Source: an uncultured delta proteobacterium
GTDB taxonomy: Bacteria > Desulfobacterota > Binatia > UBA9968
Reading direction: 5' to 3'
DNA length: 64,000 nt
Assembly: GCA_963728565.1 (NCBI GenBank)
Contig: CAVSLC010000005.1
Location: 256,001 to 320,000, forward strand
This document shows positions 9,463 to 50,582 of this stretch, one piece after another (the first letter of the stretch is position 1; the number at the start of each line of letters is the position of its first letter). Made by a program: the position numbers and the translations under genes. Below the pieces are notes generated by a model. That model saw only the letters and a program-made list of their open reading frames with translations. It was not told the DNA's origin and searched no databases.

Positions 9463-9545
9463 GAGTTCAATCCGTTCAACACGTTTGAAGATCCGAGTGG
9501 TTCTCGGACGATTTGAACGTCTTGAACTGCTTGAACGTTTTGAAC
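9439..9545. repeat. 9-bp-period inverted repeat element, copy 3 (inside an operon)
   Basis: GTTCRA at 9439, 9448, 9457, 9465, 9474; core hairpin TCCGAG-TGGTT-CTCGGA; TTGAAC at 9513, 9522, 9531, 9540. Confidence 0.85.
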
Positions 9546-9552
9546 CAGGCTT

Positions 9553-10986: not shown

Positions 10987-11291
10987 TTTGACTCACCTCC
11001 GGGCTCAGTTTTGGATCACATTGCACCTAGGGACAAGGTGTCGCCAGGCTGATGCTATGCTATGCGCGCAATCGCGCGCGGCTGTCAAGATGAACTTTGC
11101 TGGGTGTGGTGCACCTGGGAAAGATCTCTCTTTTCGTTGGGGATGACCCAAAAAGGAGAGATCGTTTCGCCGTCACTCCGACCGAAGAGGAGTCCTGTTC
11201 TCTGAGTCGTGTTCGGGCGCAGCTAAATGAGCCTCTATGCTTGCTTGACAGCTTGGAGGCGTTCTTCTAACAGTGGACGGGGAAAACGAGG

Positions 11292-12275: not shown

Positions 12276-12338
12276 TGCCTGTGCCGCTGATAAAGAAGCA
12301 CAGTGAGGATCCAGCGCGTGATCCATGGAAATCGGCGA

Positions 12339-12408
12339 ACGAGATTCTTCGGTTCCCCGGGATGACAAACCGTCGAGGTGTCATCCTGAACGCAATGAAG
12401 GATCTCGT
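12339..12408. repeat. REP-like imperfect palindrome (GTCATCCTGA...GAAGGATCTC type)
   Basis: GAGATTCTTCGGTTCCCCGGGATGACA is inverted relative to TGTCATCCTGAACGCAATGAAGGATCTC. Confidence 0.65.
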
Positions 12409-12427
12409 CTAATTTTAGGACGAGGCC

Positions 12428-13774
12428 ATGTTTGAAGATCTACGAGGCTTTTTAACTCATCTCGAAAGTCAGAAACAATTATTGCGCATCAAGGAGGAGG
12501 TCGGCGTCAAATACGAGATTGCCGCAGGCATGCGCAAGACTTCCGACATCGAAGGACCGGCGTTGCTCTTCGAAAACGTAAGAGGCTATCCCGGCTGGCG
12601 CGTGTTGGGCGGATTGTTCGCAACCAGAAAACTGGTGGCCCTCGGACTCGGCGTGCCGCAAGAGCAGATGCTCGAGCGTTACATGACTCTGGAAGACAAG
12701 CACATCCCCCCTGAGGTTGTTTCGAATGCTCCGTGCAAAGAGATCAAGTGGACCGGTGACCAGGTCGATTTATCCAAGCTGCCGATCGTCACCCACGCGA
12801 GCAAGGATTGCGGTCCGTACGTCACCATCGGCGTGCAGGTCGGTAAGAATCCCGACACCGGTATACGCAATTTGTCGGTTCATCGCATGCTGGTGCTCGG
12901 CAAGGACCGGCTCTCGCTTTGGGCGCCCGCCGACCATCACTTGGGCCGCATGATTCTGATGGCCGAAGAGAAGAAGAAAGGTTTGGAAGTTGCCACCGCT
13001 GTCGGCGTCGATCCCGCCATTGTGGTCGGTTCGCAGGCTCGAGTGCCGTTCGGCATAGACGAGTTTCATATTGCCGGAGCGTTGCGCGGAGCGCCGGTGA
13101 AGTTGACGAAGTGCGAAACCATCGACGTCGAGGTGCCGGCCTATGCCGAAGTCGTAATCGAGGGCGTGACCATTCCCGGTGAGCGCGTCGCCGATGGACC
13201 GTACGGCGAGTATCCCGGCTGCTACAGCGAAGCCAAACAGGCTCCGGTTCTCAAAGTCACAGCGATCACGATGCGCAATAATCCGATCTGGCAGACCGCG
13301 CTTACCGGCATGCCGGTGACAGAAAATCATACCCTGATCGAATACGGCAATGCCGCGGTGGTGTATCGCGAAGTCAAAAAGATCGTGCCGGAAGTGCGCG
13401 GTGTCAATATGACGCCCGGCGGGACATTCCGCCATCACGTGGTGGTGTCGATCAAAAAGCGCGCCGAGAACGAAGGGCGCAACGTGATACTCGCGCTACT
13501 TTCGATGGGCATAGGCCTCAAGCAGGTGATCGTTGTCGATGATGACATCGACCCTTTCGATCCGATGCAGGTGGATTGGGCGATGGCGACTCGTTTTCAG
13601 GCGGACAAAGACGCCATCATCATCCCAAACATTGCGTGCTCCACCTTGGACCCGTCTTGTCCCGAGGCGCGCGTTACCGCCGGTTTGGGGATCGACGCCA
13701 CTGCGCCGATGAAAGACCACTGGCGCTTCGAAAAAGTCGAGATCCCCGGCGTCGAAAAAGTAAAGTACATTTAA
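12428..13774 (+). CDS. UbiD family prFMN-dependent (de)carboxylase
   Basis: GPALLFENV, NLSVHRM, EVPAYAEVVIEG, DGPYGEY and VIVVDDDID motifs. Confidence 0.93.
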   Translation: MFEDLRGFLTHLESQKQLLRIKEEVGVKYEIAAGMRKTSDIEGPALLFENVRGYPGWRVLGGLFATRKLVALGLGVPQEQMLERYMTLEDKHIPPEVVSNAPCKEIKWTGDQVDLSKLPIVTHASKDCGPYVTIGVQVGKNPDTGIRNLSVHRMLVLGKDRLSLWAPADHHLGRMILMAEEKKKGLEVATAVGVDPAIVVGSQARVPFGIDEFHIAGALRGAPVKLTKCETIDVEVPAYAEVVIEGVTIPGERVADGPYGEYPGCYSEAKQAPVLKVTAITMRNNPIWQTALTGMPVTENHTLIEYGNAAVVYREVKKIVPEVRGVNMTPGGTFRHHVVVSIKKRAENEGRNVILALLSMGIGLKQVIVVDDDIDPFDPMQVDWAMATRFQADKDAIIIPNIACSTLDPSCPEARVTAGLGIDATAPMKDHWRFEKVEIPGVEKVKYI

Positions 13775-13893
13775 ACGCAGAGGATCGCGACCGGCGCCAG
13801 GACGCAAGGCGCAAAGGCTTGGAAAAATGGTAATCCCGTTATTTCGGCGGCGTTCCGTCTTGGCGGGATAAAGTCTCAACGTCCTTCCAAGAC

Positions 13894-14763
13894 ATGAGAA
13901 ACTTTGACTATCTCGAACCGACGACCGTAGCCGAGGCCTGCGCCATGCTCAAGCAGCATGCCGGCGAAGCCAAAGTTTTTGCCGGCGGCGCGCATGTCAT
14001 GATTCTGATGAAGCAGGGGCTGTATCAGCCCAAAGCCTTAGTCAATATCAAAAGGATTCCTGAGCTAAAGAACATTTCGTTCGACAGCACCGAAGGGTTG
14101 ATCATCGGCGCTCTGGTGACGCATCGTGAGATTGAAACATCCTCTGTTGTCAACGAAAAACTTCCAGTGCTCTCGGAGGCGGAAAGAGAAATCGCAAATA
14201 TTCGCGTGCGCAATATGGGAACGGTCGGAGGTAATCTCGCCTCAGGCGAACCGCTGACCGATCTATCACAAATTTTCATTGCGCTGGACGGTAAGTTAAA
14301 AGTCGCCGGCCCATCTGGGGAGCGCACGATTCTGGTGGAGGAGCTATTCCTCGACTTTTATACGACCAGTTTGGCGGAAGACGAAATTATCACACGAGTC
14401 GTGCTCCCGCCACCACCGCCGCGCTCCGGCATCGACTACATCCGATTTTCCAGCAGCTCTGCGGTTGACAAACCTTCAGCCGGTGTAGCCGTGCGACTGA
14501 CATTGGACGGAGAAGCCGTTCAAATTGGGAGGATCGTGCTCGGCTGTGTCGGTCCGACCCCGGTTAGGGCAAAAAAGGCCGAGGCCCTTGTCATCGGCAA
14601 AGTATTAAACGCTGATCTTATCAGGGAGGCGGCCGCTCTAGCGTCGCAAGAGTGCAGTCCGATGGGTGACCTGCGCGGCTCCGAAGAATACAAACGAGCG
14701 ATCGTCATGACGCTAGTGAGGCGGGCGGCAGACGCGGCTTACAGGAAAGCTCTCAGCGAATAA
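13894..14763 (+). CDS. Xanthine dehydrogenase family FAD-binding subunit (CoxM/CutM-like)
   Basis: FDYLEP, AGG, VRNMGTVGGNL and DLRGSEEYK motifs. Confidence 0.92.
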   Translation: MRNFDYLEPTTVAEACAMLKQHAGEAKVFAGGAHVMILMKQGLYQPKALVNIKRIPELKNISFDSTEGLIIGALVTHREIETSSVVNEKLPVLSEAEREIANIRVRNMGTVGGNLASGEPLTDLSQIFIALDGKLKVAGPSGERTILVEELFLDFYTTSLAEDEIITRVVLPPPPPRSGIDYIRFSSSSAVDKPSAGVAVRLTLDGEAVQIGRIVLGCVGPTPVRAKKAEALVIGKVLNADLIREAAALASQECSPMGDLRGSEEYKRAIVMTLVRRAADAAYRKALSE

Positions 14764-14911
14764 TCGCCAGGAAAGACCCGAGCATTCACCAGCCCAGGAT
14801 GATTTTGTGACAAGTCCGTTTCATTCGTTCCCTCTAGTGGGGAAAGCTTGTGAGTTCTGAGTGGAGATAAACCTATTCCCGTGCGCGGCGGTTTAACGGC
14901 GCGGCAGCATA

Positions 14912-15385
14912 ATGAATCGCAAGACGATTTCAATAAATGTTAACGGCACCGAGCGCAGCGTCGAAGTTGAAGCGCGCACCACGCTGCTCGATCTAGTGCG
15001 CGAACAATTCGGATTGACGGGCGCCAAGCTCGGCTGCGATATCCAGGTGTGCGGTGCTTGCACGTTGCTCGTCAACGGCAAACCGGTAAGCGCGTGCTCG
15101 GTTCTGGCGATCGACGCCGATACTTGTGATGTCTTAACCGTCGAAGGATTGGGCGGCAATGGTAAGCTCGATCCGATCCAGGAAGCGTTCATGGAGTTTG
15201 GCGCTTTGCAGTGCGGCTATTGTACGTCGGGATTCATTTTAACGACGAAAGCTTTGCTGGATGAATGCCCTAAGCCATCCGATGAGCAAATTCGAAATTA
15301 CTTGGCCGGCAACTTTTGCCGCTGCGGCTGTTATCAAGAGATTATGCAAGCGGTTAAGAACGTGGCGAGCCTGAGCCGTCGATAA
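14912..15385 (+). CDS. Xanthine dehydrogenase family 2x[2Fe-2S] subunit (CoxS/CutS-like)
   Basis: GCDIQVCGACT, QCGYCTSG and NFCRCGCY motifs. Confidence 0.95.
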   Translation: MNRKTISINVNGTERSVEVEARTTLLDLVREQFGLTGAKLGCDIQVCGACTLLVNGKPVSACSVLAIDADTCDVLTVEGLGGNGKLDPIQEAFMEFGALQCGYCTSGFILTTKALLDECPKPSDEQIRNYLAGNFCRCGCYQEIMQAVKNVASLSRR

Positions 15386-15482
15386 GGGGCGCTTGCGGCG
15401 TTGTCGCTTCGGGCTCGCATTCTCACGTACTGCTCATGTACGCTGCGGGTGCGAGCCTTCGCTCCGCCTCGCAATCGCCGCC
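15386..15482. repeat. ~100-bp imperfect palindromic intergenic element (MITE/REP-like)
   Basis: Nested inverted arms GGCG.TTGCG / CGCAA.CGCC and GGCTCGCA / TGCGAGCC around the core CGTAC-TGCTCAT-GTACG. Confidence 0.6.
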
Positions 15483-15523
15483 TTCTTGACGGTGGGGTTT
15501 TCGCAAGTGCTGCCTAGGTTACG

Positions 15524-17866
15524 ATGATGGAAGGATCCGATTCAATGGAAATGATGGGCATCGGCAAATCGGTGCGAAGGCTTGATTACGAAAGCAAGAT
15601 CTCGGGCAGGGCATTGTATCTGGCGGACATGCACATGCCGGGCATGTGCCACGGCAAAATTCTGCGCAGCCCGCTGCCTCACGCCCGGATAAAGAGAATC
15701 GACATTTCCAAGGCACTCAAGGTTACCGGCGTTGTCACGATCATCACCCGCGACGATATTCTTCATGATCAGGGTATTGAGCCTTATTACGGTCCCGTCT
15801 TTAAAGATCAAACCATCCTAGCTGTAGAAAAAGTACGCCATGTCGGCGATCCGGTAGCAGCCGTTGCGGCGGCAAGCATCGATGCCGCGGAAGAGGCGCT
15901 GCGCCTGATTGAAGTCGATTATGAAGAATTGCCGGCGGTGCTCGATGTGCATGAAGCGTTAAGAAGCGGCGCTGTATTAGTGCACGATTCGATCAGACTG
16001 CCGAGTTCCGGTTTCGCCGATCTCGCCGAAATCAAGCCGGTGGAAGGGACTAATATCTGCACCCACTTCAAGCTCAACCGCGGCGAGGTGGAGAAAGGGT
16101 TCGCGGAAGCGGACCGCATTTTCGAAGACACCTTCACCTTACCGGCGACGCAACACTGCTTTTTGGAAACTCACGCATGTATCGCGTCAGCGGAGGCGGG
16201 GCGCATCACGGTCTGGGCGACGACGCAGAATCCATTCGTCGTACGCACTCAGTTGGCCAACATATTTAAAGTTCCGGTGTCAAAAGTGCGGGTGATCGTG
16301 CCGTATCTCGGCGGTGGTTACGGCGGAAAAGTTTATCCCAAAGTCGAGCCGATTACAGTTGCCCTGGCGCAAAAGGCTCGCCGGCCGGTTCGGGTGGTGC
16401 TGTCGCGCGAGGAGGTCTTCTACACGATCACCAAACACGCCGCCGTGATCCGGATGAAAACCGGCGTGAAAAACGACGGCACCCTAATTGCGCGCGAATG
16501 TGAGATCCATCTCGACACCGGCGCCTATGCTGAAATCGGACCACGGGTGGCGAAGAAGTCAGGCTACACAGCGGCCGGCCCATATCGAATTCCCAACCTG
16601 AAGATAGATTCCTATTCCGTATACACCAATAAACCACCGGCGGGCGCTTTCCGTGGTTTCGGTGTTTCTCAATCGGCATGGGCCGTCGAGTCGCAAATGG
16701 ATATCATGGCGGCGGCCCTAAAAATGGACCCCCTCGAGATTCGGCTCAAGAACGGCTATGTCGATGGCGATCGATTCGTGACCGAAGAAACACTGCGAAG
16801 TGTTGGCTTGAAAGATTGCCTCGACGGAGTCGCTAAATCAATTGGCTGGGAAGACAGGCGGCTCGGAAGTTCAAAGGTCCAAAACCTCGATGGAAGCCTG
16901 AAGCGCGGCAAGGGATTGGCCTGCATGATCAAGGCGACGATCACGCCGTCGATATCATGCGCCGCGCTAAAGCTCAACGAAGACAGCAGCCTTTCCATTT
17001 ATTGCGGCACAGTCGAGATGGGCCAGGGTTCCGAGACAGTGCTGGCGCAGATCGCCGGAGAAGAGCTAGGAATTTCGCTGCAACGCATTCAAGTCCTCGG
17101 CGTCGATACCGATGTCGTCCCTTATGATTTGACGACGTCGTCAAGCCGTTCAACCTTTCACATGGGCAAGGCGGTGCAATTCGCGGCGCGGGACATACTG
17201 CGGCAGCTAAAGGAGATCGTCGTTGAAGAGTACGGCGTGCCGGCGGACCAGGTGAGCTTCGGCGATGGAAAGGTGCGCCTACCCGAGGGCTCGCTCGATT
17301 ATGCTGAAATCATGTTTAAGAGATTTGGCATGCAAGGTGGCACCTTGATCGGTGAGGGGGAGTTGAAGACGTCGGTGAAAGACGAATTCGGTGAAAAGAG
17401 CACTTCGGCATTTTGGTTCCTTTCTGCCGGCGCTGCCGAGGTCGAAGTGGACGTGGAGACCGGCAAATTCAAGCTGCTCAAGTACGCCACGGCGGTTGAT
17501 GTCGGTAAAGCGCTCAACCCACTCGGCTGTCGCCAGCAATTGACCGGCGCGGCAATTACCGGGATCGGCCAGGCGGTGTTCGAAGAGATCGCTTATGACA
17601 ATGGCCAGCTGATCAATCCCAATCTTATCGACTATGTCTTACCCTCTCTGGCCGATATGCCCGCTTCGATCGATCCCATCGCGGTTGAGATTCCGGACCG
17701 GAACGGTCCATTCGGCGCTAAAGGCATCGGCGAGAGCGCCTTGATCCCGGTGGCGCCGGCCATCGCTAACGCGATCTTCGATGCGGTCGGCGTGCGCATC
17801 AAGGATTTACCGATCAAAGCCGAAAAAGTTTATCTGGCCTTAGAGGATTTGAAGAACAAAACATAG
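15524..17866 (+). CDS. Xanthine dehydrogenase family molybdopterin-binding subunit (Mo hydroxylase large subunit)
   Basis: LRSPLPHARI, GGGYGGK, GAFRGFG, EMGQG and GAKGIGE motifs. Confidence 0.95.
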   Translation: MMEGSDSMEMMGIGKSVRRLDYESKISGRALYLADMHMPGMCHGKILRSPLPHARIKRIDISKALKVTGVVTIITRDDILHDQGIEPYYGPVFKDQTILAVEKVRHVGDPVAAVAAASIDAAEEALRLIEVDYEELPAVLDVHEALRSGAVLVHDSIRLPSSGFADLAEIKPVEGTNICTHFKLNRGEVEKGFAEADRIFEDTFTLPATQHCFLETHACIASAEAGRITVWATTQNPFVVRTQLANIFKVPVSKVRVIVPYLGGGYGGKVYPKVEPITVALAQKARRPVRVVLSREEVFYTITKHAAVIRMKTGVKNDGTLIARECEIHLDTGAYAEIGPRVAKKSGYTAAGPYRIPNLKIDSYSVYTNKPPAGAFRGFGVSQSAWAVESQMDIMAAALKMDPLEIRLKNGYVDGDRFVTEETLRSVGLKDCLDGVAKSIGWEDRRLGSSKVQNLDGSLKRGKGLACMIKATITPSISCAALKLNEDSSLSIYCGTVEMGQGSETVLAQIAGEELGISLQRIQVLGVDTDVVPYDLTTSSSRSTFHMGKAVQFAARDILRQLKEIVVEEYGVPADQVSFGDGKVRLPEGSLDYAEIMFKRFGMQGGTLIGEGELKTSVKDEFGEKSTSAFWFLSAGAAEVEVDVETGKFKLLKYATAVDVGKALNPLGCRQQLTGAAITGIGQAVFEEIAYDNGQLINPNLIDYVLPSLADMPASIDPIAVEIPDRNGPFGAKGIGESALIPVAPAIANAIFDAVGVRIKDLPIKAEKVYLALEDLKNKT

Positions 17867-31809: not shown

Positions 31810-32604
31810 CTAAGTAGCGAATCCAAGTAGGGTCATCCACACCCGGGCAGCGATAACCGCAACCATTATGCCATAAATCTGCCGAAGAGCTTTGGCGGAA
31901 ATGTTGCCGTGGAGCTTTTCTCCGAGTAACGCGCCGATAGCTGCTCCGATGACCACGGTGGAGGCGAGCAGTAAGGGAATCTGGCCAGTCAGAAGCTTCC
32001 CTAAAAAGCCGCTTGAGGTATTCATCATAGCGATGAACAGGCTGCTGCCGATGGCTATTCGTGTGGGCACTTTCAAGACGTAGATCAGTAAGGGTACAAA
32101 AACGAAATTACCGGCACCGAGGAGGCCGATAACAGACCCTGCAGCGAGTGAACAGACAATCAGCGGTAGCAGGACTACCACTACCTGCTCTTGCGAAAGA
32201 TCCTCTCGAGCGTTACCGGGTGGAGGCAGAAACATCATGCCCAGTACGAGCACGGTTATGATTCCGAACAGCGCCAGCAGCAGATCTTCGGAAACCCTGT
32301 CCGATGAGACCGCTCCGGTAAACGAGCCCAATGCGGAAGCCGGACCCGCTCCTAAAACAATCCGCCGGTGCACGCGCCGGTGGCGCAAATGAGCCATGCC
32401 GCCGATGATCGTGGAGAAAAATACCTGGCTAATAACCACAGCGGCGACAGTCTTTGCGTCCAGTCGGGCGAGGCCGAGCAGCGGCGGAATATAGTACAAA
32501 AGAGGGAACATCATTACGCCGCCACCGAAGCCCAACAAACCCGCAAAAAAGCCGCCGAGGACTCCCAATGCGGTTAGAGTCGAGATGAGGGAGAGGCTGA
32601 TCAT
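31810..32604 (-). CDS. Sulfite exporter TauE/SafE (TSUP) family membrane protein
   Basis: GFFAGLLGFGGG and AIGSSL motifs, about 8 transmembrane segments. Confidence 0.88.
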   Translation of the reverse strand: MISLSLISTLTALGVLGGFFAGLLGFGGGVMMFPLLYYIPPLLGLARLDAKTVAAVVISQVFFSTIIGGMAHLRHRRVHRRIVLGAGPASALGSFTGAVSSDRVSEDLLLALFGIITVLVLGMMFLPPPGNAREDLSQEQVVVVLLPLIVCSLAAGSVIGLLGAGNFVFVPLLIYVLKVPTRIAIGSSLFIAMMNTSSGFLGKLLTGQIPLLLASTVVIGAAIGALLGEKLHGNISAKALRQIYGIMVAVIAARVWMTLLGFAT

Positions 32605-33491
32605 CCGATGCTGGTGCCGGAGATCAAAACATCGGCCAGTGTGATCAAGAAATAACCGATGCTGACGTAAGCATTAAAATTGAAGAAAGCGCGATTGATG
32701 CGGGAAAGATCGTTAGGCCGGACAATACGATGCTCCCACATCAAAATGAGAGAAACTGCCAGGCATCCGATCCAGTAAATAATCCCCAGCTTGGCGGCAA
32801 CACCTACCAGGATGAGGAAAACTACGGTGCAGACATGAAAGAAGCTCGAGAGGCGCAATGCCCAAGTGACGCCGAACCTAACCGGAATCGAGTGTAATCC
32901 ATGCGCGCGATCGAATTCGCGATCCTGCAGTGAATAGATGATGTCGAAGCCCGCCAGCCAAAATACCACCGCCAAACCGAGACAAAGTGGAATCACCAAC
33001 TCCGCCAAATTAGTTGCGGAACCAGCCACCGCCAGCCAAGCGCCGATTGGCGCAAGCGAAAGAGCGACTCCGAGGAACAGGTGTGATGTCCAGGTGAAAC
33101 GTTTAGTGAGCGAATAGAAGAAAATGACCGCCAAAGCTACAGGAGACAACACGAAACAAGTCCAATTGAGTTGGTAGGCGCCGAAGACGAAGATGACCGA
33201 CGCGACGATCGTCAGAAGTCCCGCTTCCCACGTCTTCACCGTTCCCCTGGGCAATTCCCAACTCTTGGTGCGCGGGTTCAATGCGTCGAAATTGCGGTCA
33301 GCCAGACGATTAAAACCCATGGCAGCGGTACGCGCGCCGACCATGGCAACCAATATCCATAAGACTGATCTCAGAGTTATCGGATGGCTTGGCCATGCAA
33401 GAACCAGTGAAGCAAACGCGAACGGCAGCGCAAAAACAGTATGAGAAAAGCGGACGAGACTTGCGTAGCTGCGAATTTTTTCGACGAGCAT
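32601..33491 (-). CDS. mqnP: UbiA family prenyltransferase (MqnP-type, futalosine menaquinone pathway)
   Basis: HTVFALPFA, ARTAAMGFNRLADRNFDALNPRT and GFDIIYSLQD motifs; adjacent to an mqnL-like gene. Confidence 0.85.
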   Translation of the reverse strand: MLVEKIRSYASLVRFSHTVFALPFAFASLVLAWPSHPITLRSVLWILVAMVGARTAAMGFNRLADRNFDALNPRTKSWELPRGTVKTWEAGLLTIVASVIFVFGAYQLNWTCFVLSPVALAVIFFYSLTKRFTWTSHLFLGVALSLAPIGAWLAVAGSATNLAELVIPLCLGLAVVFWLAGFDIIYSLQDREFDRAHGLHSIPVRFGVTWALRLSSFFHVCTVVFLILVGVAAKLGIIYWIGCLAVSLILMWEHRIVRPNDLSRINRAFFNFNAYVSIGYFLITLADVLISGTSIG

Positions 33492-33579
33492 GGCGGTTCA
33501 AGCCTGAAAGTTAGCGCGCTGCTAAGCTAAACGAGAGTCAATGATGGCCAATGAGCGCTGGACGTTGTGAAAGCGCATT

Positions 33580-35022
33580 TCAAATGCCCAGTTTTTGCCA
33601 GATCGAATCGATATAATTCTTGGTCTTTTCGTCCATGACAATGACCTCGGGCCATTCGCGCTCAAAGCCTTCACTGCGCCATTTGCGTGTTGCGTCAATG
33701 CCGATCTTCGACCCGTAGCCGAGAACCGGGGCCGCATGATCCAAGACATCCACCGGACCTTCGACAATAACCGTGTCGCGTTGCGGATCGATATGGTTTC
33801 CCGCTACCCAGGTTACTTCCGAAAGATCGTGCACATTGACGTCGTGATCAACGACCACCAAAATCTTGGTAAACATCATCTGACCCATGCCCCAGAGAGC
33901 GTGCATGATCTTGCGCGCATGGGCGGGGTATTCTTTCTTGATCGAGATGATCGCCAGGTTATGGAACACTCCATGCACGGGCAAATTCATGTCGACAATC
34001 TCGGGAAAAGTCATACGCAAGAGCGGCAGAAAGATTCTTTCGGTCGCTTTACCCATATAAGCATCTTCCATCGGCGGTCGACCGACGATTGTCGTTGGGT
34101 AGATCGGATGTTCTTTCTGGGTGATGCAGGTGACGTGAAATACCGGGTAATCGTCCGCCAGTGAATAAAAACCGGTATGATCTCCAAACGGCCCTTCGCG
34201 GCGCAGTGGCTCCGCCGGATCGACGTAGCCCTCAATCACGATATCCGAGTTTGCCGGTACTTCCACGTCGACGGTTACGCCTTTGACCAGTCGCACGCCT
34301 TTCTTGCGCAAGAAACCGGTAAAGAGTACCTCATCGATTTGATCCGGCAGCGGCGCTGTCGCGGCATAGATCATGGCGGGGTCCCCGCCGAGGCAGACAG
34401 CCAACTCCATGCGCCGGCTTTGCTCTTTCTGGTGCTGATAATGGCGCGCCCCTACTTTATGCAAGTGCCAGTGCATGCCGGTAGTCCGCGAATCAAAAAC
34501 TTGCATTCGATAAAGACCTACGTTTCGAGTTCCTTTGCCCGGATCTTTTGAAAAAACCATCGGCAAGGTTATAAACGGTCCGGCGTCTCCCGGCCAGCAG
34601 GTGAGCACGGGCAATATGCTCAAGTCTGGTTGCCGGTGAATGATCTGCTGGCATTCGCCCTTACTCACAATTTTTGGTGGGATGCCCGCGAGTTTTACCA
34701 GTTCTGAAACGAGATGCAGCTTGTCACTGAATGATTTCGGCGGCTTGGTTTGCACCAGCTTTTGAACCTCACCTGCAAGTTCCTCTATATCGTCGACCCC
34801 TAAGGCCAGAGCCATGCGTTTATGCGAGCCGAAGGCATTGATTAAAACCGGGATCTGTTTGCCGTCGACGTTCTCGAACAACAACGCCGGACCGTTATTT
34901 TTCATCACGCGATCGGCAATCTCCGTGATCTCCAACTCGGCTTTCACCGGATAGGTAATGCGCCTGAGTTCGCCTTGGCGTTCTAAAACTTGTACGAAGT
35001 CTTGCAGACTGTTATATGCCAT
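33580..35022 (-). CDS. mqnL: Menaquinone biosynthesis decarboxylase (UbiD family, MqnL-type)
   Basis: LEITEIADR, CWPGDAGPFIT, EGPFGDHTGFY and HALWGMGQMMFTK motifs. Confidence 0.88.
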   Translation of the reverse strand: MAYNSLQDFVQVLERQGELRRITYPVKAELEITEIADRVMKNNGPALLFENVDGKQIPVLINAFGSHKRMALALGVDDIEELAGEVQKLVQTKPPKSFSDKLHLVSELVKLAGIPPKIVSKGECQQIIHRQPDLSILPVLTCWPGDAGPFITLPMVFSKDPGKGTRNVGLYRMQVFDSRTTGMHWHLHKVGARHYQHQKEQSRRMELAVCLGGDPAMIYAATAPLPDQIDEVLFTGFLRKKGVRLVKGVTVDVEVPANSDIVIEGYVDPAEPLRREGPFGDHTGFYSLADDYPVFHVTCITQKEHPIYPTTIVGRPPMEDAYMGKATERIFLPLLRMTFPEIVDMNLPVHGVFHNLAIISIKKEYPAHARKIMHALWGMGQMMFTKILVVVDHDVNVHDLSEVTWVAGNHIDPQRDTVIVEGPVDVLDHAAPVLGYGSKIGIDATRKWRSEGFEREWPEVIVMDEKTKNYIDSIWQKLGI

Positions 35023-39436: not shown

Positions 39437-39779
39437 GTACAGGATCTATACTAGCGGTAATTGTCTAAAGAAAACAAAGCTCGCCAGTGTATTACCATTG
39501 GGTTTCGCCGATGTCTCTTACCCTGCAAGTACAATCTGTAGAACACCGGGTGTCATTATCGATCACCTGGCTGGACGTTTGGGCACAAGTTCATCTCGCC
39601 ACACCGCCTGACGACTTCACGTCGCCGTTGCCGGCGCGTTAGCTCAGCGTGGGATGATGCGCGTGCCACCCGTTCGCTGTGTGAATCCGAACAGCCTCTC
39701 TGGCTCAATCCGGCGCTTTGTCAGGGTCCTTCTTAGGCGATCATTTGCATCCCAAGATCAAGTTTGTCAGAAGAGACGG

Positions 39780-40520
39780 ATGCTTAGTGTCGCTCTCGCT
39801 CTCGGATTGTTGACTGCGTTGGCCAATATCTTCGGCAGCGCTCTTGCGGTGCTCCAGCGAGAACCCTCGCGTCGGTTTACCGCGGCGGCACTTGGCCTAA
39901 GTGGCGGATTTATCCTGGCAGCGGCGCTGCTCGAGATGCTGCCGGAAAGCTTATCACGGGGACCGTCGATGCCCGGTTACGTGGCCGTCGGATACCTCTC
40001 TCTATTCCTGATCGAGCAATTTACCGATGTGCACCTGCATAGTTTGCCGGACGATGAACATTTGATACCGGTCCCGGTAGCCGCCGGATTGGCGTCCCTT
40101 GTGGCTTTCAACGTCCACGACTTTATTGATGGATTGGCTATCGGTGCGGGCATGATCGCTAAAACCGATCTTGGAATACTGGTCTTTCTCTCGGTGTTAC
40201 TCCACGAAATTCCCGCCGGCTTTGTGATTGCCGCGATCATGCGTGCGGCAGGCTGGAGCCGATGGTCTGCTATGGTCGCCGGCGGGAGCTTGGGGCTCGT
40301 CACGATCATCGGCATCGTTCTGCCATTTTGGGCTCGGGAAATTAAACCAGTCTTTGCCGACGCCCTCTTGGCATTTGCGGCCGGAAACTTTATCTATGTG
40401 GGTGCGACTCTGCTCGTCCCGCTCTCGGAATCCGGTAAATCGCGCTGGATCACACTCCTGGTGGTCCTCGGCTTTGCTATTTTCTACGTTTCGAGCCGGC
40501 TCGTTGAGTCCTTTTTCTAG
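39780..40520 (+). CDS. ZIP family metal transporter
   Basis: HDFIDGLAIG and LLHEIPAG motifs. Confidence 0.9.
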   Translation: MLSVALALGLLTALANIFGSALAVLQREPSRRFTAAALGLSGGFILAAALLEMLPESLSRGPSMPGYVAVGYLSLFLIEQFTDVHLHSLPDDEHLIPVPVAAGLASLVAFNVHDFIDGLAIGAGMIAKTDLGILVFLSVLLHEIPAGFVIAAIMRAAGWSRWSAMVAGGSLGLVTIIGIVLPFWAREIKPVFADALLAFAAGNFIYVGATLLVPLSESGKSRWITLLVVLGFAIFYVSSRLVESFF

Positions 40521-40561
40521 ATCTAGGTAGTTCTTGTGACAAAATAAAACGGGGGAGTACT

Positions 40562-41098
40562 ATGTTTGTAAAATTATTGTGCGCAACCATATTAGTGAGC
40601 TTGGCGGCGGCTTGTTCTATGTCCACCGAGCAGGCTGCTCAAGCGACAGCCGAACTCAAAGACAAGGACGGCAAGACCGTCGGGGTGGCCACGTTTCGCG
40701 AGAGCTCAGGGGGAGTGAGGGTCAACGTGAATGTCAAAGGACTCACGCCGGGTTTGCACGCGGTTCATGTTCACGCGGTCGGTCGATGCGATGCGCCGGC
40801 GTTTACCAGCGCCGGCGGCCATTTCAATCCTGCGCAAAAAAAACATGGTCACAAAAGTGCCGAGGGCGCTCACGCAGGGGATTTACCCAATATGCTTGTT
40901 GCCAAGGATGGCACAGGCCGTTTTGAGGCTTTCACCGATGGCATGACCCTTAAACCCGGCGCGACATCGGTTTTTGACAAAGACGGCAGCGCGTTGGTGA
41001 TTCATGTCGGCGTTGACGATTACGTCACCGATCCTACCGGCAATGCCGGTGACAGAGCCGCATGCGGGATCATTACAATGGCTCAATCCAGAATGTAG
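40562..41098 (+). CDS. sodC: Cu/Zn superoxide dismutase lipoprotein
   Basis: Metal-ligand motifs HAVHVH, AGGHFNP, KHG, HAGDL, LVIH and GDRAACG; lipobox LAAAC. Confidence 0.92.
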   Translation: MFVKLLCATILVSLAAACSMSTEQAAQATAELKDKDGKTVGVATFRESSGGVRVNVNVKGLTPGLHAVHVHAVGRCDAPAFTSAGGHFNPAQKKHGHKSAEGAHAGDLPNMLVAKDGTGRFEAFTDGMTLKPGATSVFDKDGSALVIHVGVDDYVTDPTGNAGDRAACGIITMAQSRM

Positions 41099-41109
41099 CG
41101 CTCGACCGA

Positions 41110-41856
41110 CTAGAGGTAATGGAGCCTTACCTCGCCCCCGGCGAGGCTGTGCTCTGCTTGCCGGATGCGTTCGGCGGTTCCGAGATCCTGCCAAAATCCG
41201 TCAAAGCAAAAACCATAGAGCGATTGCCCGGCGGCCAGCATCCGCGGGTAAGTCTGCCGGGTCGTGCTGAATTTATGAGCTCCCGTTTCCGTGTCCATAT
41301 AGTCGAAGACCGTAGGCTCGAGGACTTGTACGCCGGTGAACATCAATTTGCGAATCGGCCCGGGTGGCTGCATCGGCATTCTTGTTTCGAGAAATCGGCA
41401 GATCCGATCTCGTTCGTCGATGTCCATCGAGCCATATCTGTCCGCATCCCTATCAGGCCGCAAAACCAACGTTGCCGCGGCTCGTTGCTTTTGATGAAAT
41501 TCTAGCAACTCGTCGAGATGCAAATCGATCAAGACATCGGTGTTGATGACGATGAAAGTGTCGTCCTGCAAAAATGGCTTGGCCTTGAGCAGACCGCCCC
41601 CGGTATCCAACAGCTCCGGCTCGACGGAATAACTGATCTGTAGTCCAAGTTGGCTGCCGTCGGCCAGCCGGTTCTCGATCTGCTCGCCATGATGATGCAG
41701 GTTGATGACGACATCGCGAATGCCATAGTGCCGTAACAGCAGCAGCGAATACTCGATCATGGGCCGGCCGCCGACTGGCACCAGAGCTTTGGGCTGGGTA
41801 TCGGTCAGCGGCCTCAGGCGTGTTCCTTGCCCGGCAGCCAAAACCATCGCCTTCAT
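41110..41856 (-). CDS. murU: Nucleotidyltransferase (N-acetylmuramate-1-phosphate uridylyltransferase-like)
   Basis: MKAMVLAAGQGTRLRPLT..PK motif; overlaps the amgK-like gene. Confidence 0.8.
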   Translation of the reverse strand: MKAMVLAAGQGTRLRPLTDTQPKALVPVGGRPMIEYSLLLLRHYGIRDVVINLHHHGEQIENRLADGSQLGLQISYSVEPELLDTGGGLLKAKPFLQDDTFIVINTDVLIDLHLDELLEFHQKQRAAATLVLRPDRDADRYGSMDIDERDRICRFLETRMPMQPPGPIRKLMFTGVQVLEPTVFDYMDTETGAHKFSTTRQTYPRMLAAGQSLYGFCFDGFWQDLGTAERIRQAEHSLAGGEVRLHYL

Positions 41857-42923
41857 CGCATCTCCTCGTAGTGCTCAGCCAGGATCGGGATGATCGGTTG
41901 GAGCTGCGGTAAGCGCGCCAAATTGCGTTTCAATCGACGGACCGTGGGCGGAATGAATTTCCGGTATCCCGGTTTGCCCTTAACCAGATCGAGATAATAA
42001 AACCGGCCGACTACCTTGAAATCGCGCTGAATCGCCGAGAGCAGGTAGATCTCACGAAAATCGTCACCGTCGACAGCGCGACTTTCGAGAGCGGCGCGCT
42101 GGTGTAAATAGTAGCTCACAAGATGATCTTCAATATGGGGTCTAATCACGCTGTCGGTGATCCGATCATTCAGGAGCGAGGCCAAATCGTACTGCGGCGG
42201 CGCGAGCAAGGCGTCTTGGAAATCTATTACTGCCACAGCTTCGTCGTGAATCATCAGATTCCAGCTGTGATAGTCGCGGTGGTTTAGACAACCGGGATAG
42301 CGGTCCAGGCGATGGGCTATGTCCGAGAATATTCTTCGCAGCGTCTCGATTACCGTTCCAGCTACATGGGCGCCGGGGCGCTTCTCTAATCCGTATTCGA
42401 GGAAGTGTTCGAACTCCCACATGTAAAGCCGGAAATCAAATCGCTGCTGAAATGCAATGCAGTCTTCGTCCCGCGCCGCTGTGCCTCGGATTTGTAGAAT
42501 CAAAAGCTCGTCGATGGCTTTTTCGTACCAGCTAAGGACCTCTGCTTCCGGCAGGCCTTGGACGCGGTCCCATAACGCTGTATCGCCTAAATCCTCCAGT
42601 ATAAGAATGCCGTCGTTTTGCCAATGAGCGTAAAGCTTGGGCACCCGAACACCGACGCCGCTGAAAAATCGGTGCATATTGAGGAAGGGCAATTCTTTAG
42701 GAGCTTGCTTGAAAACGGCAAGCTCTTCACTAGAGAGGGGCAGAGCACTGCCGGCCGGGAGCTCCATGATAATCACTGATTTTGGCGCTTCGGAGGATTT
42801 TATGACAGCGCGGTAGTAGTGCCGGCTCGAGGCATCCCCCGCGAGCGGTATTAGAGAAGAAATAGCCGTGTTCGCGCCGAAAACGGCGATGATCTTATCC
42901 GCGAAGACTTCCTGGTGATTCAT
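41853..42923 (-). CDS. amgK: APH-family phosphotransferase (anomeric MurNAc/GlcNAc kinase-like)
   Basis: LAGDASSRHYYR, LEDLGD, HRDYHSWNLM and IDFQDA motifs. Confidence 0.82.
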   Translation of the reverse strand: MNHQEVFADKIIAVFGANTAISSLIPLAGDASSRHYYRAVIKSSEAPKSVIIMELPAGSALPLSSEELAVFKQAPKELPFLNMHRFFSGVGVRVPKLYAHWQNDGILILEDLGDTALWDRVQGLPEAEVLSWYEKAIDELLILQIRGTAARDEDCIAFQQRFDFRLYMWEFEHFLEYGLEKRPGAHVAGTVIETLRRIFSDIAHRLDRYPGCLNHRDYHSWNLMIHDEAVAVIDFQDALLAPPQYDLASLLNDRITDSVIRPHIEDHLVSYYLHQRAALESRAVDGDDFREIYLLSAIQRDFKVVGRFYYLDLVKGKPGYRKFIPPTVRRLKRNLARLPQLQPIIPILAEHYEEMR

Positions 42924-42964
42924 AACGCAGCGTTCGACTCTATTCGTGCCAGCGCCGCTGGCCG

Positions 42965-43192
42965 TTAAACCTCTCAGCTACCGCCGAAACCTATGGTGAC
43001 CTTGCCGGCATCGACGATTACAGGTATTTGGCGGCGGCCATTGGAGTGTTTCAGCATACGCGCCAGACCGGCGTCATCTTCGAGCACGTTGATGTATTCG
43101 AACGGAATTTTTCGACGGGAGAAATCCTCACGGGCTCCCGAAGTATAGGGTCAAAGATCTTGGCCGAAGATAAGGACTGGTTCGCTGCTCAT
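42965..43192 (-). CDS. Small glutaredoxin-like selenoprotein candidate with two in-frame UGA codons (UXX-star type)
   Basis: MSSEPVLIFGQDL(U)PYTSGAREDFSRRKIPFEYINVLEDDAGLARMLKHSNGRRQIPVIVDAGKVTIGFGGS(U)EV-stop; GAGGGAG RBS; a hairpin follows each UGA. Confidence 0.85.
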
Positions 43193-43317
43193 CGAATTTG
43201 CTCCCTCATTGGCATTGATAACCAGATGTTACTATGAAAGACGAATAAATTCCGCATATTTCAAAGACAGGGCAATTTAAAATAAATTTATGTCGTGCTT
43301 TAGTTGAGGGGTACTCT

Positions 43318-44157
43318 ATGCCCGGCACTCTGTACATCGTCGCAACGCCGATAGGTAATCTCGAAGACATCACGCTACGGGCAATCCGAATTCTGAAGGG
43401 CGCCGATCTCATTGCCGCCGAAGACACCCGGCACACGCAAACTCTGCTGCGGCACTTCACCATCAACACGCGTTTAACCAGTTATCACGAGCACAATGAA
43501 CGAGCCAAGACGGCCCAATTGGTCGCTCGCCTCGAGCGCGGCGAAAGCATCGCTCTGGTCTCGGACGCCGGCACACCGGCCATCGCCGATCCCGGCTACC
43601 GCTTAGTTGTCGAAGCCACTCGCATGGGCATTCCCGTTGTACCGATTCCGGGTCCGTCGGCATTAGTCGCGGCTCTCAGCGCCAGCGGTCTGCCCACCGA
43701 CGGATTCAATTTCAGGGGATTTCTTCCGGCACGAAAGCGGGAGAGGAGGTCCAAGCTGCAAGAGCTTCGTGTCGACCGCTATAGCCTGGTCGTCTACGAG
43801 ACACCGCACCGACTCAAGGAGTCGCTCGATGACATTCGTGAAATTCTTGGTGACCGCCGAATGGTGCTGGCGCGCGAAGTCACCAAAATTCATGAGGAGT
43901 TCCTCCGCGGCCGCATCAGCGAAGTGATCGGAGAAGTCGGTGGACGCGAGATTCGAGGAGAAGTAACGCTTATTATCGAAGGCTGCTCCGATCTGCATCA
44001 TCCATCCCAAGAGACACTGCGCGAGGAGATTGCGAAACTGCTAGCCGACGGGCTGCGGGTGAAAGAGGTCGCCGAAATGCTCGGGGAGAAATACGGATAT
44101 TCTAAACGCCAGATCTACGGTTTAGCTATGGATCAAGACAAAAATCTCAAGTCTTGA
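43318..44157 (+). CDS. rsmI: 16S rRNA C1402 2'-O-methyltransferase
   Basis: LYIVATPIGNLEDIT, AAEDTR and SDAGTPAIADPG motifs. Confidence 0.96.
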   Translation: MPGTLYIVATPIGNLEDITLRAIRILKGADLIAAEDTRHTQTLLRHFTINTRLTSYHEHNERAKTAQLVARLERGESIALVSDAGTPAIADPGYRLVVEATRMGIPVVPIPGPSALVAALSASGLPTDGFNFRGFLPARKRERRSKLQELRVDRYSLVVYETPHRLKESLDDIREILGDRRMVLAREVTKIHEEFLRGRISEVIGEVGGREIRGEVTLIIEGCSDLHHPSQETLREEIAKLLADGLRVKEVAEMLGEKYGYSKRQIYGLAMDQDKNLKS

Positions 44158-47051: not shown

Positions 47052-47164
47052 GCACGTAGTTTCGCAGTCTCGAAGGAGCAAGGCCTATACCGCGTTCATC
47101 GCTAATCGCAGCAGCGTTAAAATCAAAGTCTCGCCATAATTCGCATAAAAATATCGACGAACTG

Positions 47165-47282
47165 TGTGGCAACTTACGACAGCGTGTGGTTTTTCACAAT
47201 CATTGAAATTTATCTCGTTTATTCAAGCAATTGAGACTATTGCACGGGCGCACAGGCTCTTAGCGCGTTGCATATTACAACG
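47165..47282. promoter_or_regulatory. Candidate upstream activator sites for a sigma54 enhancer-binding protein
   Basis: 17-bp palindromes TGTGG-N7-CGACA (47165-47181) and CGTTG-N7-CAACG (47266-47282), plus TGTG-N6-CACA (47185-47198). Confidence 0.5.
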
Positions 47283-47357
47283 GAAAGAATCGCCGAGCCC
47301 GGCGCAAAGCCACTGAAACATTCGCGTTTATTGCAAAGAACATCAGCCGGGGCCTGC

Positions 47358-47373
47358 GGGCACGTCGCTTGCG
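47358..47373 (+). promoter_or_regulatory. Sigma54 (-24/-12) promoter
   Basis: GGCACGTCGCTTGC fits consensus (T)GGCACG-N4-TTGC with exact GG-N10-GC spacing. Confidence 0.75.
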
Positions 47374-47449
47374 TCTACTCCCGGATACCAATCGGCTATT
47401 CGGGATTGCGCAAACTTTCAGATTCGAAATTTAGAAAGGAGGAGATAAC

Positions 47450-47572
47450 ATGAAAAAATTGCTTTTGGCATTGTTGTTGGGAGTGACCGTCGTGAGTTCG
47501 ATCGTCGATCTCGCCGCGCCCGTGAGCGCCCAAGATGAAGAACCCAAACCCAGGAAGCCCGAAACGGACTAA
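47450..47572 (+). CDS. 40-aa secreted microprotein (signal peptide plus ~13-aa mature peptide)
   Basis: AAAGGAGGAG RBS; MKKLLLALLLGVTVVSSIVDLAAPVSAQDEEPKPRKPETD; own promoter and terminator. Confidence 0.8.
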   Translation: MKKLLLALLLGVTVVSSIVDLAAPVSAQDEEPKPRKPETD

Positions 47573-47596
47573 TCCGTAGAAGTTGATCTCAGCTTG

Positions 47597-47628
47597 CAAC
47601 AAGGGGGCTCTGTGCCCCCTTGTTGTTT
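47597..47628. terminator. Intrinsic terminator between the microprotein gene and convergent acyP
   Basis: 12-bp stem CAACAAGGGGGC-TCTGT-GCCCCCTTGTTG followed by TTT. Confidence 0.75.
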
Positions 47629-47657
47629 ACGACAGGCCTCGTGAGATCTGCTGTCGG

Positions 47658-47945
47658 TTATCGTATTCGAAATTCATTAAACTCTCCTCGAAACTCGCGC
47701 CGCTGCAAATCCACTTCGTCGACTCGAGCTCCTGGCGGTCCCCGGCGGCACCAGTCGATAAGTTCTTCGATGCTATCCGATCGCCCTTCGGCCACCAGCT
47801 CCACTGAGCCATCGTGGCGATTCATGACCCAGCCGGTCAGGCCCAAGTGCCGTGCCTGTTGCGCCGTTGAAGCTCGGAAATAGACGCCCTGCACTCGACC
47901 TTTCACAATCAACCGAATACGCGCATGGGACGGAATGGTTGGCAT
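47658..47945 (-). CDS. acyP: Acylphosphatase
   Basis: GRVQGVYFR and GWVMNRHDGSVE motifs. Confidence 0.93.
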   Translation of the reverse strand: MPTIPSHARIRLIVKGRVQGVYFRASTAQQARHLGLTGWVMNRHDGSVELVAEGRSDSIEELIDWCRRGPPGARVDEVDLQRREFRGEFNEFRIR

Positions 47946-48169
47946 TGCTGCGGGTTTTTTAACCCAGCCACCGCTCTGGCGCAAGCCGGTTGACTCAGCG
48001 TGCGGCCGCAAAATTATTTGACAACCGGCCCGCAGTTTCGATAGGCTTTCGCCGGTTCTAAGGGTTTACCGAAGAGCCCGTGCCGTGGTCCTCCAGACCG
48101 ATTTAGGCCCTGCCCTTTGGCGACTCGATCCGCGCAAATGCGCACTCGTGAATCAAACAGGAGGGTCTG

Positions 48170-48481
48170 ATGGGAGCCAAATTGTATGTCGGCAATTTGC
48201 CGTATTCGGTGACCGAAGAGAGATTGCAGCAGCATTTTGCGCAGCACGGCTCGGTGATCAGCGCTCGTATCGTTACCGATAAGTTCACGGGCCGTTCCAA
48301 AGGTTTCGGCTTTGTCGAGATGAGTTCCGATGCTGAAGCCGAGCGCGCCATTAATGCTCTGAACGGAACCGATTTCGAAGGACGTAACGTGGTCGTCAGC
48401 GAGGCTCGTCCGCAGGCGCCGCGAGAGTCTGGCTTCGGTGGCGGCGGAGGCGCCGGCAGACCCCGTCGGGATCGTTACTGA
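48170..48481 (+). CDS. RRM-domain RNA-binding protein with Gly-rich tail
   Basis: RNP2 LYVGNL and RNP1 KGFGFVEM. Confidence 0.95.
   Translation: MGAKLYVGNLPYSVTEERLQQHFAQHGSVISARIVTDKFTGRSKGFGFVEMSSDAEAERAINALNGTDFEGRNVVVSEARPQAPRESGFGGGGGAGRPRRDRY

Positions 48482-50582
<2,101 letters not shown>

Follow-up and report, generated by a model that had tools for sequence, protein, structure and literature searches.

A candidate double selenoprotein of UXX-star family 1 in an uncultured bacterium of the Binatia

A 75-residue reading frame on the minus strand of the window (the whole stretch of 64,000 nucleotides that was analysed), at positions 43192–42965, is most probably a real gene of the NCBIfam NF041114 family in which each of the two in-frame UGA codons encodes selenocysteine (Sec) under the direction of a hairpin in the RNA. 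We put the probability of this reading at about 0.8. As read directly from the sequence, the frame starts with an ATG at 43192–43190 and comprises 75 codons followed by TAA. The two in-frame UGA codons reported in the earlier note, at codons 14 and 73 in the contexts DL-U-PYT and GFGGS-U-EV-TAA, are seen in the minus-strand sequence. The cis-proline motif described there as intact is present as Q-I-P-V-I at residues 55–59, and the spacing of 41 nt to the next gene is found between the TAA and the ATG at 42923. The gene comprises the following features.

43201–43207, minus strand: Shine-Dalgarno-like GAGGGAG, 8 nt upstream of the ATG, read from the sequence
42965–43192, minus strand: predicted coding sequence, with 75 sense codons and a TAA stop, of a glutaredoxin-like selenoprotein of UXX-star family 1, from the NF041114, NF041212 and PF00462 scores
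43151–43153, minus strand: UGA codon 14, predicted active-site Sec of U-P-Y-T in the context D-L-U-P-Y-T, from translation, codon counts and alignment
42974–42976, minus strand: UGA codon 73, predicted C-terminal Sec in the context G-F-G-G-S-U-E-V, TGA in all 42 sequences compared
42965–42967, minus strand: true stop TAA, the "star" of UXX-star, read from the sequence

No ORF of at least 50 residues appears in this frame in the table-11 ORF list, so that a gene caller would pass over it.

The predicted protein scores 109.7 bits (E = 6.2e-32) against NF041114, "UXX-star selenoprotein family 1", an equivalog profile with a cutoff of 72. The match spans residues 6–75, corresponding to profile positions 1–70 of 70. 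Scores also exceed the cutoff of NF041212 (86.3 bits against 66) and the gathering score of Pfam PF00462 (34.6 against 22.9). Together with this full-length match above a curated cutoff, the protein has a Sec-X-X-stop C-terminus and a glutaredoxin-like fold with a U/C-x-x-T site, and two near relatives carry the NCBI name "UXX-star (seleno)protein family 1". The UXX-star assignment made in the earlier note is confirmed by the comparison with the NCBIfam profiles. The E value and the recurrence of both TGA positions in related genomes make the match better than chance.

For comparison, the window was combined with 41 related loci, all from other genomes, to give 42 sequences. Protein identity across the 41 loci ranges from 59 to 99%, with 17 invariant columns. 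Codon 14 is TGA in 28 of the 42 sequences, TGC in 12 and TGT in 2, with no Trp or Gly codon among them, while Thr17 of U14-P-Y-T17 is invariant. In the nearest relative (L001), codon 14 is TGC and is followed by 54 identical bases, whereas the loci L002 and L003 have TGA; this pattern argues against a sequencing error at codon 14. The best tree requires seven Sec/Cys switches at this position, of which well-supported branches force only one.

Two in-frame TGA codons normally mark a broken gene, and we considered whether a glutaredoxin gene has decayed here into a pseudogene or whether TGA is a sense codon for Trp or Gly in this organism. In the protein database, 2 of 25 aligned homologues do show W at both positions, which is explained by a gene caller reading TGA as Trp; the remaining 23 stop at residue 72. 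Both versions of this explanation are contradicted by the conservation of the protein, by the exchange of codon 14 with Cys codons only, and by the use of TGA as an ordinary stop in the organism, where it ends 18 of the 41 window ORFs checked. We regard them as almost certainly wrong.

All 42 sequences, which come from several phyla, have TGA at codon 73. In each, the next two codons are conserved and the third is a stop, which is TAA in 17, TAG in 14 and TGA in 11. In an alignment of the region downstream of TGA-73 (A2), a three-base pattern is observed: the invariant positions are G4, T8 and T10, with G7 close to invariance, and third positions vary. This pattern is compatible with translation through the TGA. 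The earlier expectation of Cys or Sec at both UGA sites in homologues therefore holds for codon 14, with 14 TGC or TGT forms beside the TGA forms, and finds no Cys form at codon 73. With the family score, the Cys/Sec pair at codon 14 and the uniform TGA at codon 73, the description of the gene as a candidate double selenoprotein stands, and we infer that Sec is actually inserted at both codons.

A second reading accepts Sec at codon 14 and takes UGA-73 as the real stop of a 72-residue protein, with the hairpin beyond it contributing to transcript stability or to attenuation before the kinase gene downstream. Most database homologues are annotated in this way, as 72 residues ending in GFGGS, the hairpin is located in the intergenic gap, and the lack of Cys at position 73 in the 42 sequences leaves the Cys/Sec pairing test without purchase there. 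Nevertheless, the in-frame stop lies exactly two codons on in every sequence, with all three stop codons in use, the two intervening codons vary mostly at third positions, and the curated NF041114 profile itself includes residues past UGA-73. The properties of the hairpin, described below, also speak against this reading, which we judge to be very unlikely. Sec at both codons remains the preferred interpretation.

The earlier note had placed a hairpin 10–11 nt past each UGA. Two such elements are found, the first beginning at 10 nt and the second at 11 nt.

43116–43140, minus strand: candidate SECIS 1, in the coding region, with a CGGGAG / CUCCCG lower stem and an apical CC-GUGA-GG, from the minimum free energy fold, with moderate support
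42948–42962, minus strand: candidate SECIS 2, GCCAGC-GGC-GCUGGC, located entirely within the 3' untranslated region, from conservation, covariation and a covariance model

The hairpins were tested for a position shortly 3' of the UGA and a G-containing apical loop. These criteria follow the description of bSECISearch. Neither element is thermodynamically unusual, with shuffle z-scores of the folding energy of −0.45 for SECIS 1 and −0.17 for SECIS 2; the support for them comes from comparison across genomes and not from folding energy. Judged from the sequences, SECIS 2 clearly has the predicted form, and support for SECIS 1 is moderate. Rfam at its gathering threshold gave no match in the whole window, so that no curated SECIS family applies.

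A hairpin defined by fixed criteria is present at the SECIS 2 position in 37 of the 42 sequences (5 miss the strict criteria) against a background of 4.0%, or about 1.7 expected, and on A2, where 74.1% of cells pair, the covariation score is reached by 0 of 500 shuffles; as the sequences compared are kin, the binomial figure and the shuffle counts overstate their independence. RNAalifold on the MAFFT alignment past UGA-73 yielded no consensus pairs. After this result the hairpin was supplied by hand and the alignment refitted with a covariance model, and in the resulting alignment (A5) both sides change in 8 of 8 pairs. A scan of the window with the covariance model (R1) returned the SECIS 2 site as its sole match. 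The distance between TGA-73 and the hairpin is constant, including in the 13 loci that have no kinase gene downstream, and the hairpin has no T run; in addition, no terminator-like site was found between the selenoprotein gene and the kinase gene. These observations weigh against a stop at codon 73 followed by a stability or attenuation element.

For SECIS 1, 26 of the 28 TGA forms retain both apical pairs, compared with 7 of the 14 Cys forms (Fisher p = 0.003). Clades differ in the lower stem: at five of the six stem positions pairing is kept in 15–19 of the 28 TGA forms, and the pair adjoining the apical element is kept in 27. TGA and Cys forms show no difference in folding energy past codon 14 (p = 0.29).

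In the proposed mechanism, UGA-14 would be read as Sec under the direction of a hairpin inside the coding region, whereas UGA-73 would depend on a hairpin located entirely past the true stop, since only two codons (E-V) follow that Sec. No gene for the Sec machinery (tRNA-Sec, selA, selB and selD) was found in the 64-kb window, where ARAGORN detected no tRNA genes, Rfam gave no match and Pfam searches covered 46 of the 69 ORFs of at least 150 residues. The 41 related loci likewise contain no tRNA. Ten TGA read-through frames, taken from stretches without a long ORF among the many stop-to-stop frames with a TGA, matched no selenoprotein family.

The AlphaFold2 model of the 75-residue protein has a mean pLDDT of 94.5 and a glutaredoxin fold, and Foldseek aligns it with the glutaredoxins 3ic4, 7c10/7c12 and 3zit at TM scores of 0.7–0.8. 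In the alignment with solved glutaredoxins, the U of U-P-Y-T falls on the first CPYC cysteine, and Q-I-P corresponds to the T-V-P cis-proline motif. DSSP assigns two-residue strands to residues 55–56, just ahead of cis-Pro57, and to residues 73–74. These two strands are compatible with pairing of the tail with the cis-proline loop. A proximity of Sec14 and Sec73 is suggested by the DSSP string of the model only.

The protein has a truncated glutaredoxin fold in which an invariant Thr replaces the second Cys of CPYC. In the most likely mode of action, residue 14 would be resolved by the invariant Sec73. The product would be an intramolecular Se–Se bond, or an S–Se bond in relatives with Cys14, with the flexible G-G-S-U-E-V tail lying against the cis-proline loop, which in glutaredoxins binds the glutathione cysteine. 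We advance this resolving role of Sec73, with its tail on the cis-proline loop, tentatively, at somewhat less than even odds.

Alternatively, both Sec residues may serve as ligands for a metal or metalloid, such as Cu, Zn, Hg or As species, instead of forming a redox couple. Genes for a Cu/Zn superoxide dismutase (SodC) and a ZIP zinc transporter lie 2–3 kb downstream in the window, SodC occurs within the fetched flanks of 14 of the 41 loci, and in one locus of an unrelated lineage (L041) it is directly upstream on the same strand. Against this, the SodC and ZIP genes are on the opposite strand and are part of a block with synteny throughout in one clade; of the 13 loci that fall outside this clade, 12 have no such neighbour. 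The fold and the position of the active site are, moreover, those of a thiol-disulfide oxidoreductase. We consider the ligand role unlikely, and less probable than the resolving role of Sec73.

Two genes follow the selenoprotein gene on the same strand.

41853–42923, minus strand: APH-family kinase, AmgK-like, under curated cutoffs (context), from NCBIfam, Pfam and PDB matches
41110–41856, minus strand: sugar-1-phosphate nucleotidyltransferase, MurU-like, under curated cutoffs (context), from NCBIfam, Pfam and PDB

The start of the nucleotidyltransferase gene overlaps the stop of the kinase gene by 4 nt. The names amgK and murU, given to the pair in the earlier note, are not sustained by the profile scores. 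The kinase reaches 102.7 bits against the cutoff of 550 for the AmgK profile NF045759 and 89.1 against 500 for NF045698, and in the PDB it has a single relative, 3csv, which is described as an "aminoglycoside phosphotransferase". The nucleotidyltransferase likewise stays under the cutoffs of the MurU profiles NF045761 (182 bits against 250) and NF045697 (101 against 370). In the PDB, its match to a glucose-1-phosphate uridylyltransferase (8x7s, 9.3e-39) is about as good as those to 4y7t (1.5e-38) and to the structure named MurU (8hhd, 4.3e-33). A functional link between the selenoprotein and this pair is likewise not established by the synteny comparison: the pair follows the selenoprotein gene in 28 of the 41 loci, all from one clade with synteny across the whole neighbourhood, and in none of the 13 that belong to other lineages. 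A gene on the opposite strand intervenes in 4 of the 28.

Co-transcription of the selenoprotein gene with the two downstream genes may occur. Matches to the sigma-54 consensus number 249, where chance alone would give 266, with nothing convincing upstream of the selenoprotein gene, and a sigma-70 scan of positions 41000–43500 found one site against 1.6 expected, which is not upstream of this gene. A wider proposal is that the S-U-E-V tail folds back into the glutathione groove, pairs with Q55-I56 beside cis-Pro57 and forms a self-contained, glutathione-independent diselenide relay, co-transcribed in a Binatia-like clade with the AmgK/MurU-like sugar kinase and uridylyltransferase and coupling them to the redox state. 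This proposal is speculative and, in our estimate, improbable.

Standard gene callers miss the gene when codon 14 is TGA, and they truncate the Cys14 forms to 72 residues and label them "glutaredoxin 3". On the comparative data, SECIS 2 would be a clear case from nature in which a bacterial SECIS lies wholly past the stop codon. Decoding appears to be position-specific, as the terminating codon six bases past the Sec UGA is itself UGA in 11 of the 42 sequences. The exchange of Sec and Cys at the active site appears to be fast and is observed between near-identical genomes. Biochemical work on the function of UXX-star family 1 would be new.

In a 2026 review (PMC13188914), the family appears among the selenoproteins "Predicted with high confidence", with the motif UxxT and two Sec, under the name "Distant Grx-like protein 1" and with credit to Zhang and Gladyshev 2008. 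The part of the 2008 paper considered here (PMC2398784) contains a "Grx-like" row with UxxC and not UXX-star family 1 by name, and the attribution rests on the table in PMC13188914. Among the papers searched, "UXX-star" and "GUXX-star" occur only in this review; none of them joins Binatia and selenocysteine, and the results for Binatota with selenium terms, judged from the search listing, included none evidently on selenoproteins.

Among known systems, animal thioredoxin reductase and thioredoxin glutathione reductase carry a C-terminal Gly-Cys-Sec-Gly tail. They resemble the UXX-star protein in that the Sec sits on a flexible tail, two or three residues short of the C-terminus, and in that the SECIS necessarily lies outside the coding region. 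When the family profile is compared with PDB sequences, the best match is to a thioredoxin glutathione reductase, in its glutaredoxin domain (5w1j, E = 4e-8). The tails are not homologous, however, and the eukaryotic proteins use another type of SECIS and bear the tail on a large flavoenzyme, so that the comparison may be drawn as an analogy of mechanism only.

Classical glutaredoxins (7c10 and 7c12 from Clostridium oremlandii; Grx3 from E. coli, 3grx and 1fov) share the fold, at TM scores of 0.7–0.8, the placement of residue 14 at the first CPYC Cys, the cis-proline motif, and a PF00462 score above the gathering value. In contrast to these proteins, UXX-star family 1 has an invariant Thr for the second active-site Cys and a second Sec on the tail, and its chain stops after G-G-S-U-E-V, without the C-terminal helices past the GG motif. 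A dithiol CPYC glutaredoxin is defined by C-x-x-C, a GG-x-D-D glutathione-binding motif and C-terminal helices; here the site is U-P-Y-T, the chain ends three residues past the GG motif (G70-G71), and no helix is observed beyond residue 49.

UXX-star families 2 and 3 and the HUGP/GUXX-star fusion (NF041211, NF047338 and NF045501) also have a glutaredoxin-like domain ending in Sec-X-X-stop, and all three profiles match the 75-residue protein at E = 3e-13 to 8e-14; their scores of 48–52 bits are, however, far under the cutoffs of 97–325. The closest system is NF041114 family 1 itself, with the same U-x-x-T motif, two Sec residues, C-terminal U-X-X-stop and full-length match, and no difference of substance. 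The UXX-star layout and its existence are already catalogued in NCBIfam and in the 2026 review; the 75-residue gene is not a new kind of gene, and it fills a gap in the annotation.

The minus strand of the window holds a frame of 75 sense positions with TGA at codons 14 and 73, as the earlier note had read it, and both hairpins described there behind the UGAs are present. The features of this gene, the UXX-star gene, are as follows.

8 nt before the ATG, minus strand: GAGGGAG motif, read from the sequence
43192 (ATG) to 42967-42965 (TAA), minus strand: UXX-star gene frame, read from the sequence
43153-43151, minus strand: TGA codon 14, in the context DL-U-PYT
43140-43116, minus strand: first hairpin, CGGGAG/CUCCCG, starting 10 nt past the first UGA
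42976-42974, minus strand: TGA codon 73, in the context GFGGS-U-EV
42962-42948, minus strand: second hairpin, GCCAGC-GGC-GCUGGC, starting 11 nt past the second UGA

Under translation table 11 the frame contains no ORF of at least 50 aa, and an ordinary gene caller would therefore skip it. Translated with C in place of U, the protein reaches 109.7 bits with NCBIfam NF041114, 'UXX-star selenoprotein family 1' (cutoff 72), at E = 6.2e-32 and with all 70 profile positions covered. The broader model NF041212 (86.3 bits, cutoff 66) and Pfam glutaredoxin PF00462 (34.6 bits, gathering score 22.9) are also matched, while matches to UXX-star families 2 and 3 and to the HUGP/GUXX-star fusion models are far under their cutoffs. 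The family named in the earlier note is thus the correct one and is already catalogued; the gene is a real, correctly read member of this known predicted selenoprotein family, and an ordinary example of it.

Of 292 homologues from a protein search, 120 were listed, and 25 of these were aligned. In 23 of these 25 the chain ends at residue 72 (GFGGS) and carries Cys at position 14; the other two have W at both 14 and 73, which is TGA translated as Trp. Source names among the matches listed are 'glutaredoxin 3' or 'GrxC', and two NCBI entries among them read 'UXX-star (seleno)protein family 1 [Candidatus Binatia bacterium]'.

Forty-one related loci (L001-L041) came from a scan of species-representative genomes, and their DNA was read together with the window (n = 42). 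The earlier note had proposed looking for Cys or Sec at both UGA sites: codon 14 is TGA in 28 sequences and a Cys codon in 14 (TGC 12, TGT 2), and codon 73 is TGA in all 42. The latter is followed by exactly two codons (E-V, G-V, D-V, E-I or G-I) and then a stop (TAA 17, TAG 14, TGA 11). Downstream of the second TGA, third codon positions vary and first and second positions are invariant or nearly so, which is the pattern of translated sequence. Where the terminating codon is itself TGA (L012, L014, L022, L028, L031, L033-L036, L039 and L040), decoding would have to distinguish two UGAs six bases apart, which is compatible with distance-dependent SECIS action.

The nearest locus, L001, whose neighbouring genes are 91-97% identical to those of the window, has TGC as codon 14 and matches the window without a difference over the next 54 bases, and L002 and L003 have TGA at that codon. 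This argues that the TGA is not a sequencing slip and that the Sec/Cys exchange is recent. On its best topology, a tree of the 42 proteins, with columns 14 and 73 left out, calls for seven Sec/Cys switches, but resolution is poor and the branches with good support require just one.

Reassignment of TGA to Trp or Gly is excluded, since TGA terminates 18 of the 41 checked ORFs (40 with a Pfam family, one without) and so acts as a normal stop here. No SelA, SelB or SelD domain turned up in the 46 ORFs scanned of the window's 69 of at least 150 aa, the set left after dropping those overlapped by longer ones, and no tRNA was found in the window or the 41 loci. Ten further TGA read-through frames, scanned from stretches of the window without a long ORF, included none resembling a selenoprotein; those tried at 47082-48480 (about 1.4 kb), where there is no ORF of at least 150 aa, gave no family match.

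The second hairpin was defined by at least five pairs, a loop of 3-5 nt with G at its first position, and a loop start 15-20 nt past the UGA. Such hairpins occur in 37 of the 42 sequences, where the background rate of 4.0% over all positions of the 41 loci predicts about 1.7; in the remaining five (L033, L034, L037, L040, L041) the hairpins differ in loop or spacing. Stems differ among clades (for example GCCAGC/GCUGGC, GCCGAC/GUCGGC, ACCUGUA/UACAGGU, GACCCGCA/UGCGGGUC). With the structure supplied by hand, not predicted, 74.1% of cells pair in the MAFFT alignment and seven of eight pairs change on both sides; none of 500 shuffles reached the covariation score, and all slid registers score lower. 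In the alignment fitted to R1, a covariance model of this hairpin (41 sequences, L041 being below threshold), changes on both sides are seen in all eight pairs and again none of 500 shuffles scores as high, although this alignment leans towards the model by construction. Within the window, R1 finds the second-hairpin site only. RNAalifold predicted no consensus structure for this region of the MAFFT alignment, single-sequence z-scores were unremarkable for both hairpins, and no Rfam match was found in the window. The second hairpin lies wholly past the stop codon and lacks a T run, and a search of 41000-43500 turned up no terminator-like site.

The SECIS evidence is weaker for the first UGA than for the second. 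Of the 28 TGA forms, 26 keep both apical CC/GG pairs (+21/+28 and +22/+27), versus 7 of the 14 Cys forms (Fisher p = 0.003). At five of the six lower-stem positions only 15-19 of the 28 keep the pair, whereas the pair adjoining the apical element is retained by 27; in the flanks, other clades use different pairings. Folding energy after codon 14 does not separate TGA from Cys forms (p = 0.29). Comparing TGA with Cys forms in this way is confounded by amino-acid changes.

A gap of 41 nt separates the TAA from the next ATG (42923), which opens two same-strand genes, an APH-family kinase and then a sugar-1-phosphate nucleotidyltransferase. The earlier note named them amgK-murU; AmgK and MurU are indeed the best NCBIfam matches, but well under the curated cutoffs, and PDB comparison of the nucleotidyltransferase does not separate MurU from glucose-1-phosphate uridylyltransferase. 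Given the short gap and the lack of a terminator, the co-transcription proposed in the earlier note is plausible in the window. The pair follows the UXX-star gene in 28 of the 41 loci (L001-L026, L029, L030), labelled Binatia, 'Deltaproteobacteria' and similar, where the order of flanking rsmI, sigma-54 regulator, histidine kinase, SodC and ZIP genes is also largely conserved. In four of these, an opposite-strand calcineurin-like metallophosphoesterase gene of about 410 aa stands between the UXX-star and kinase genes (L006 615-1856, L013 546-1778, L015 5339-6571, L017 5736-6968). The pair is absent from the other 13 loci (Acidobacteriota, one Spirochaetia, one Desulfobacteraceae; 29 of 83 ORFs scanned), whose neighbours include LolA-like, MMPL, thioesterase and SDR genes. 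This pattern suggests synteny at the level of the clade, not a functional link that holds across the family.

L013 (labelled Candidatus Udaeobacter sp.) and L004 and L026 (Syntrophobacter-type labels) show the full Binatia-type gene order despite labels from other phyla, with neighbouring genes 66-79% identical to those of the window, which suggests mis-binned contigs or outdated labels. ZIP zinc transporter and Cu/Zn superoxide dismutase genes lie just past the nucleotidyltransferase gene (window 39654-41098), and in the unrelated L041 (Desulfobacteraceae) SodC immediately precedes the UXX-star gene in the same orientation (region 3759-4607); this proximity may be chance, or it may hint at a link to metals or oxidative stress.

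Elsewhere in the window, the ligA ORF (48591-50546) encodes adenylation, OB and HhH domains, but the BRCT-like C-terminal part of the protein matches a different frame (about 48490-48730, within 48482-48770 minus) ending at a TGA near 48482, which points to a frameshift or assembly indel at about 48730-48764. The stretches 540-17866 and 32601-35022 carry genes for three UbiD-family decarboxylases, one UbiA prenyltransferase, one LigB-type dioxygenase, an amidohydrolase, a molybdenum hydroxylase of three subunits (FAD, 2Fe-2S and Mo) and NMT1-type ABC transport; as a set, these genes suggest aromatic-compound catabolism.

An AlphaFold2 model built on the 42-sequence alignment (mean pLDDT 94.5, pTM 0.83) has the elements strand-helix-strand-helix-strand-strand, and in Foldseek it falls among glutaredoxins and NrdH-like proteins (3ic4, 7c10/7c12, 3zit, 3grx, 1h75; TM 0.7-0.8). 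DSSP assigns short strands at 55-56 and 73-74 of the model, from which we infer that the tail may pair with the residues ahead of cis-Pro57. Such pairing would bring Sec73 beside residue 14, where a Se-Se or S-Se bond could form; we give this model-based reading somewhat less than an even chance. The main functional rival takes the Sec residues as metal ligands, a possibility raised in the review PMC13188914, which gives the role of Sec in the UXX-star family as unknown, possibly metal binding.

The site of the proposed tail pairing has a known counterpart. Before the cis-Pro, glutaredoxins have the site where the cysteine of glutathione binds, and in a profile alignment to solved glutaredoxins the Q-I/V-P motif corresponds to their T-V-P cis-Pro motif. 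Neither T17 nor position 73 varies, and the chain ends three residues past the GG motif (G70-G71). In the same alignment U14 takes the place of the first Cys of CPYC; in contrast to classical glutaredoxins, the second Cys is replaced by T17.
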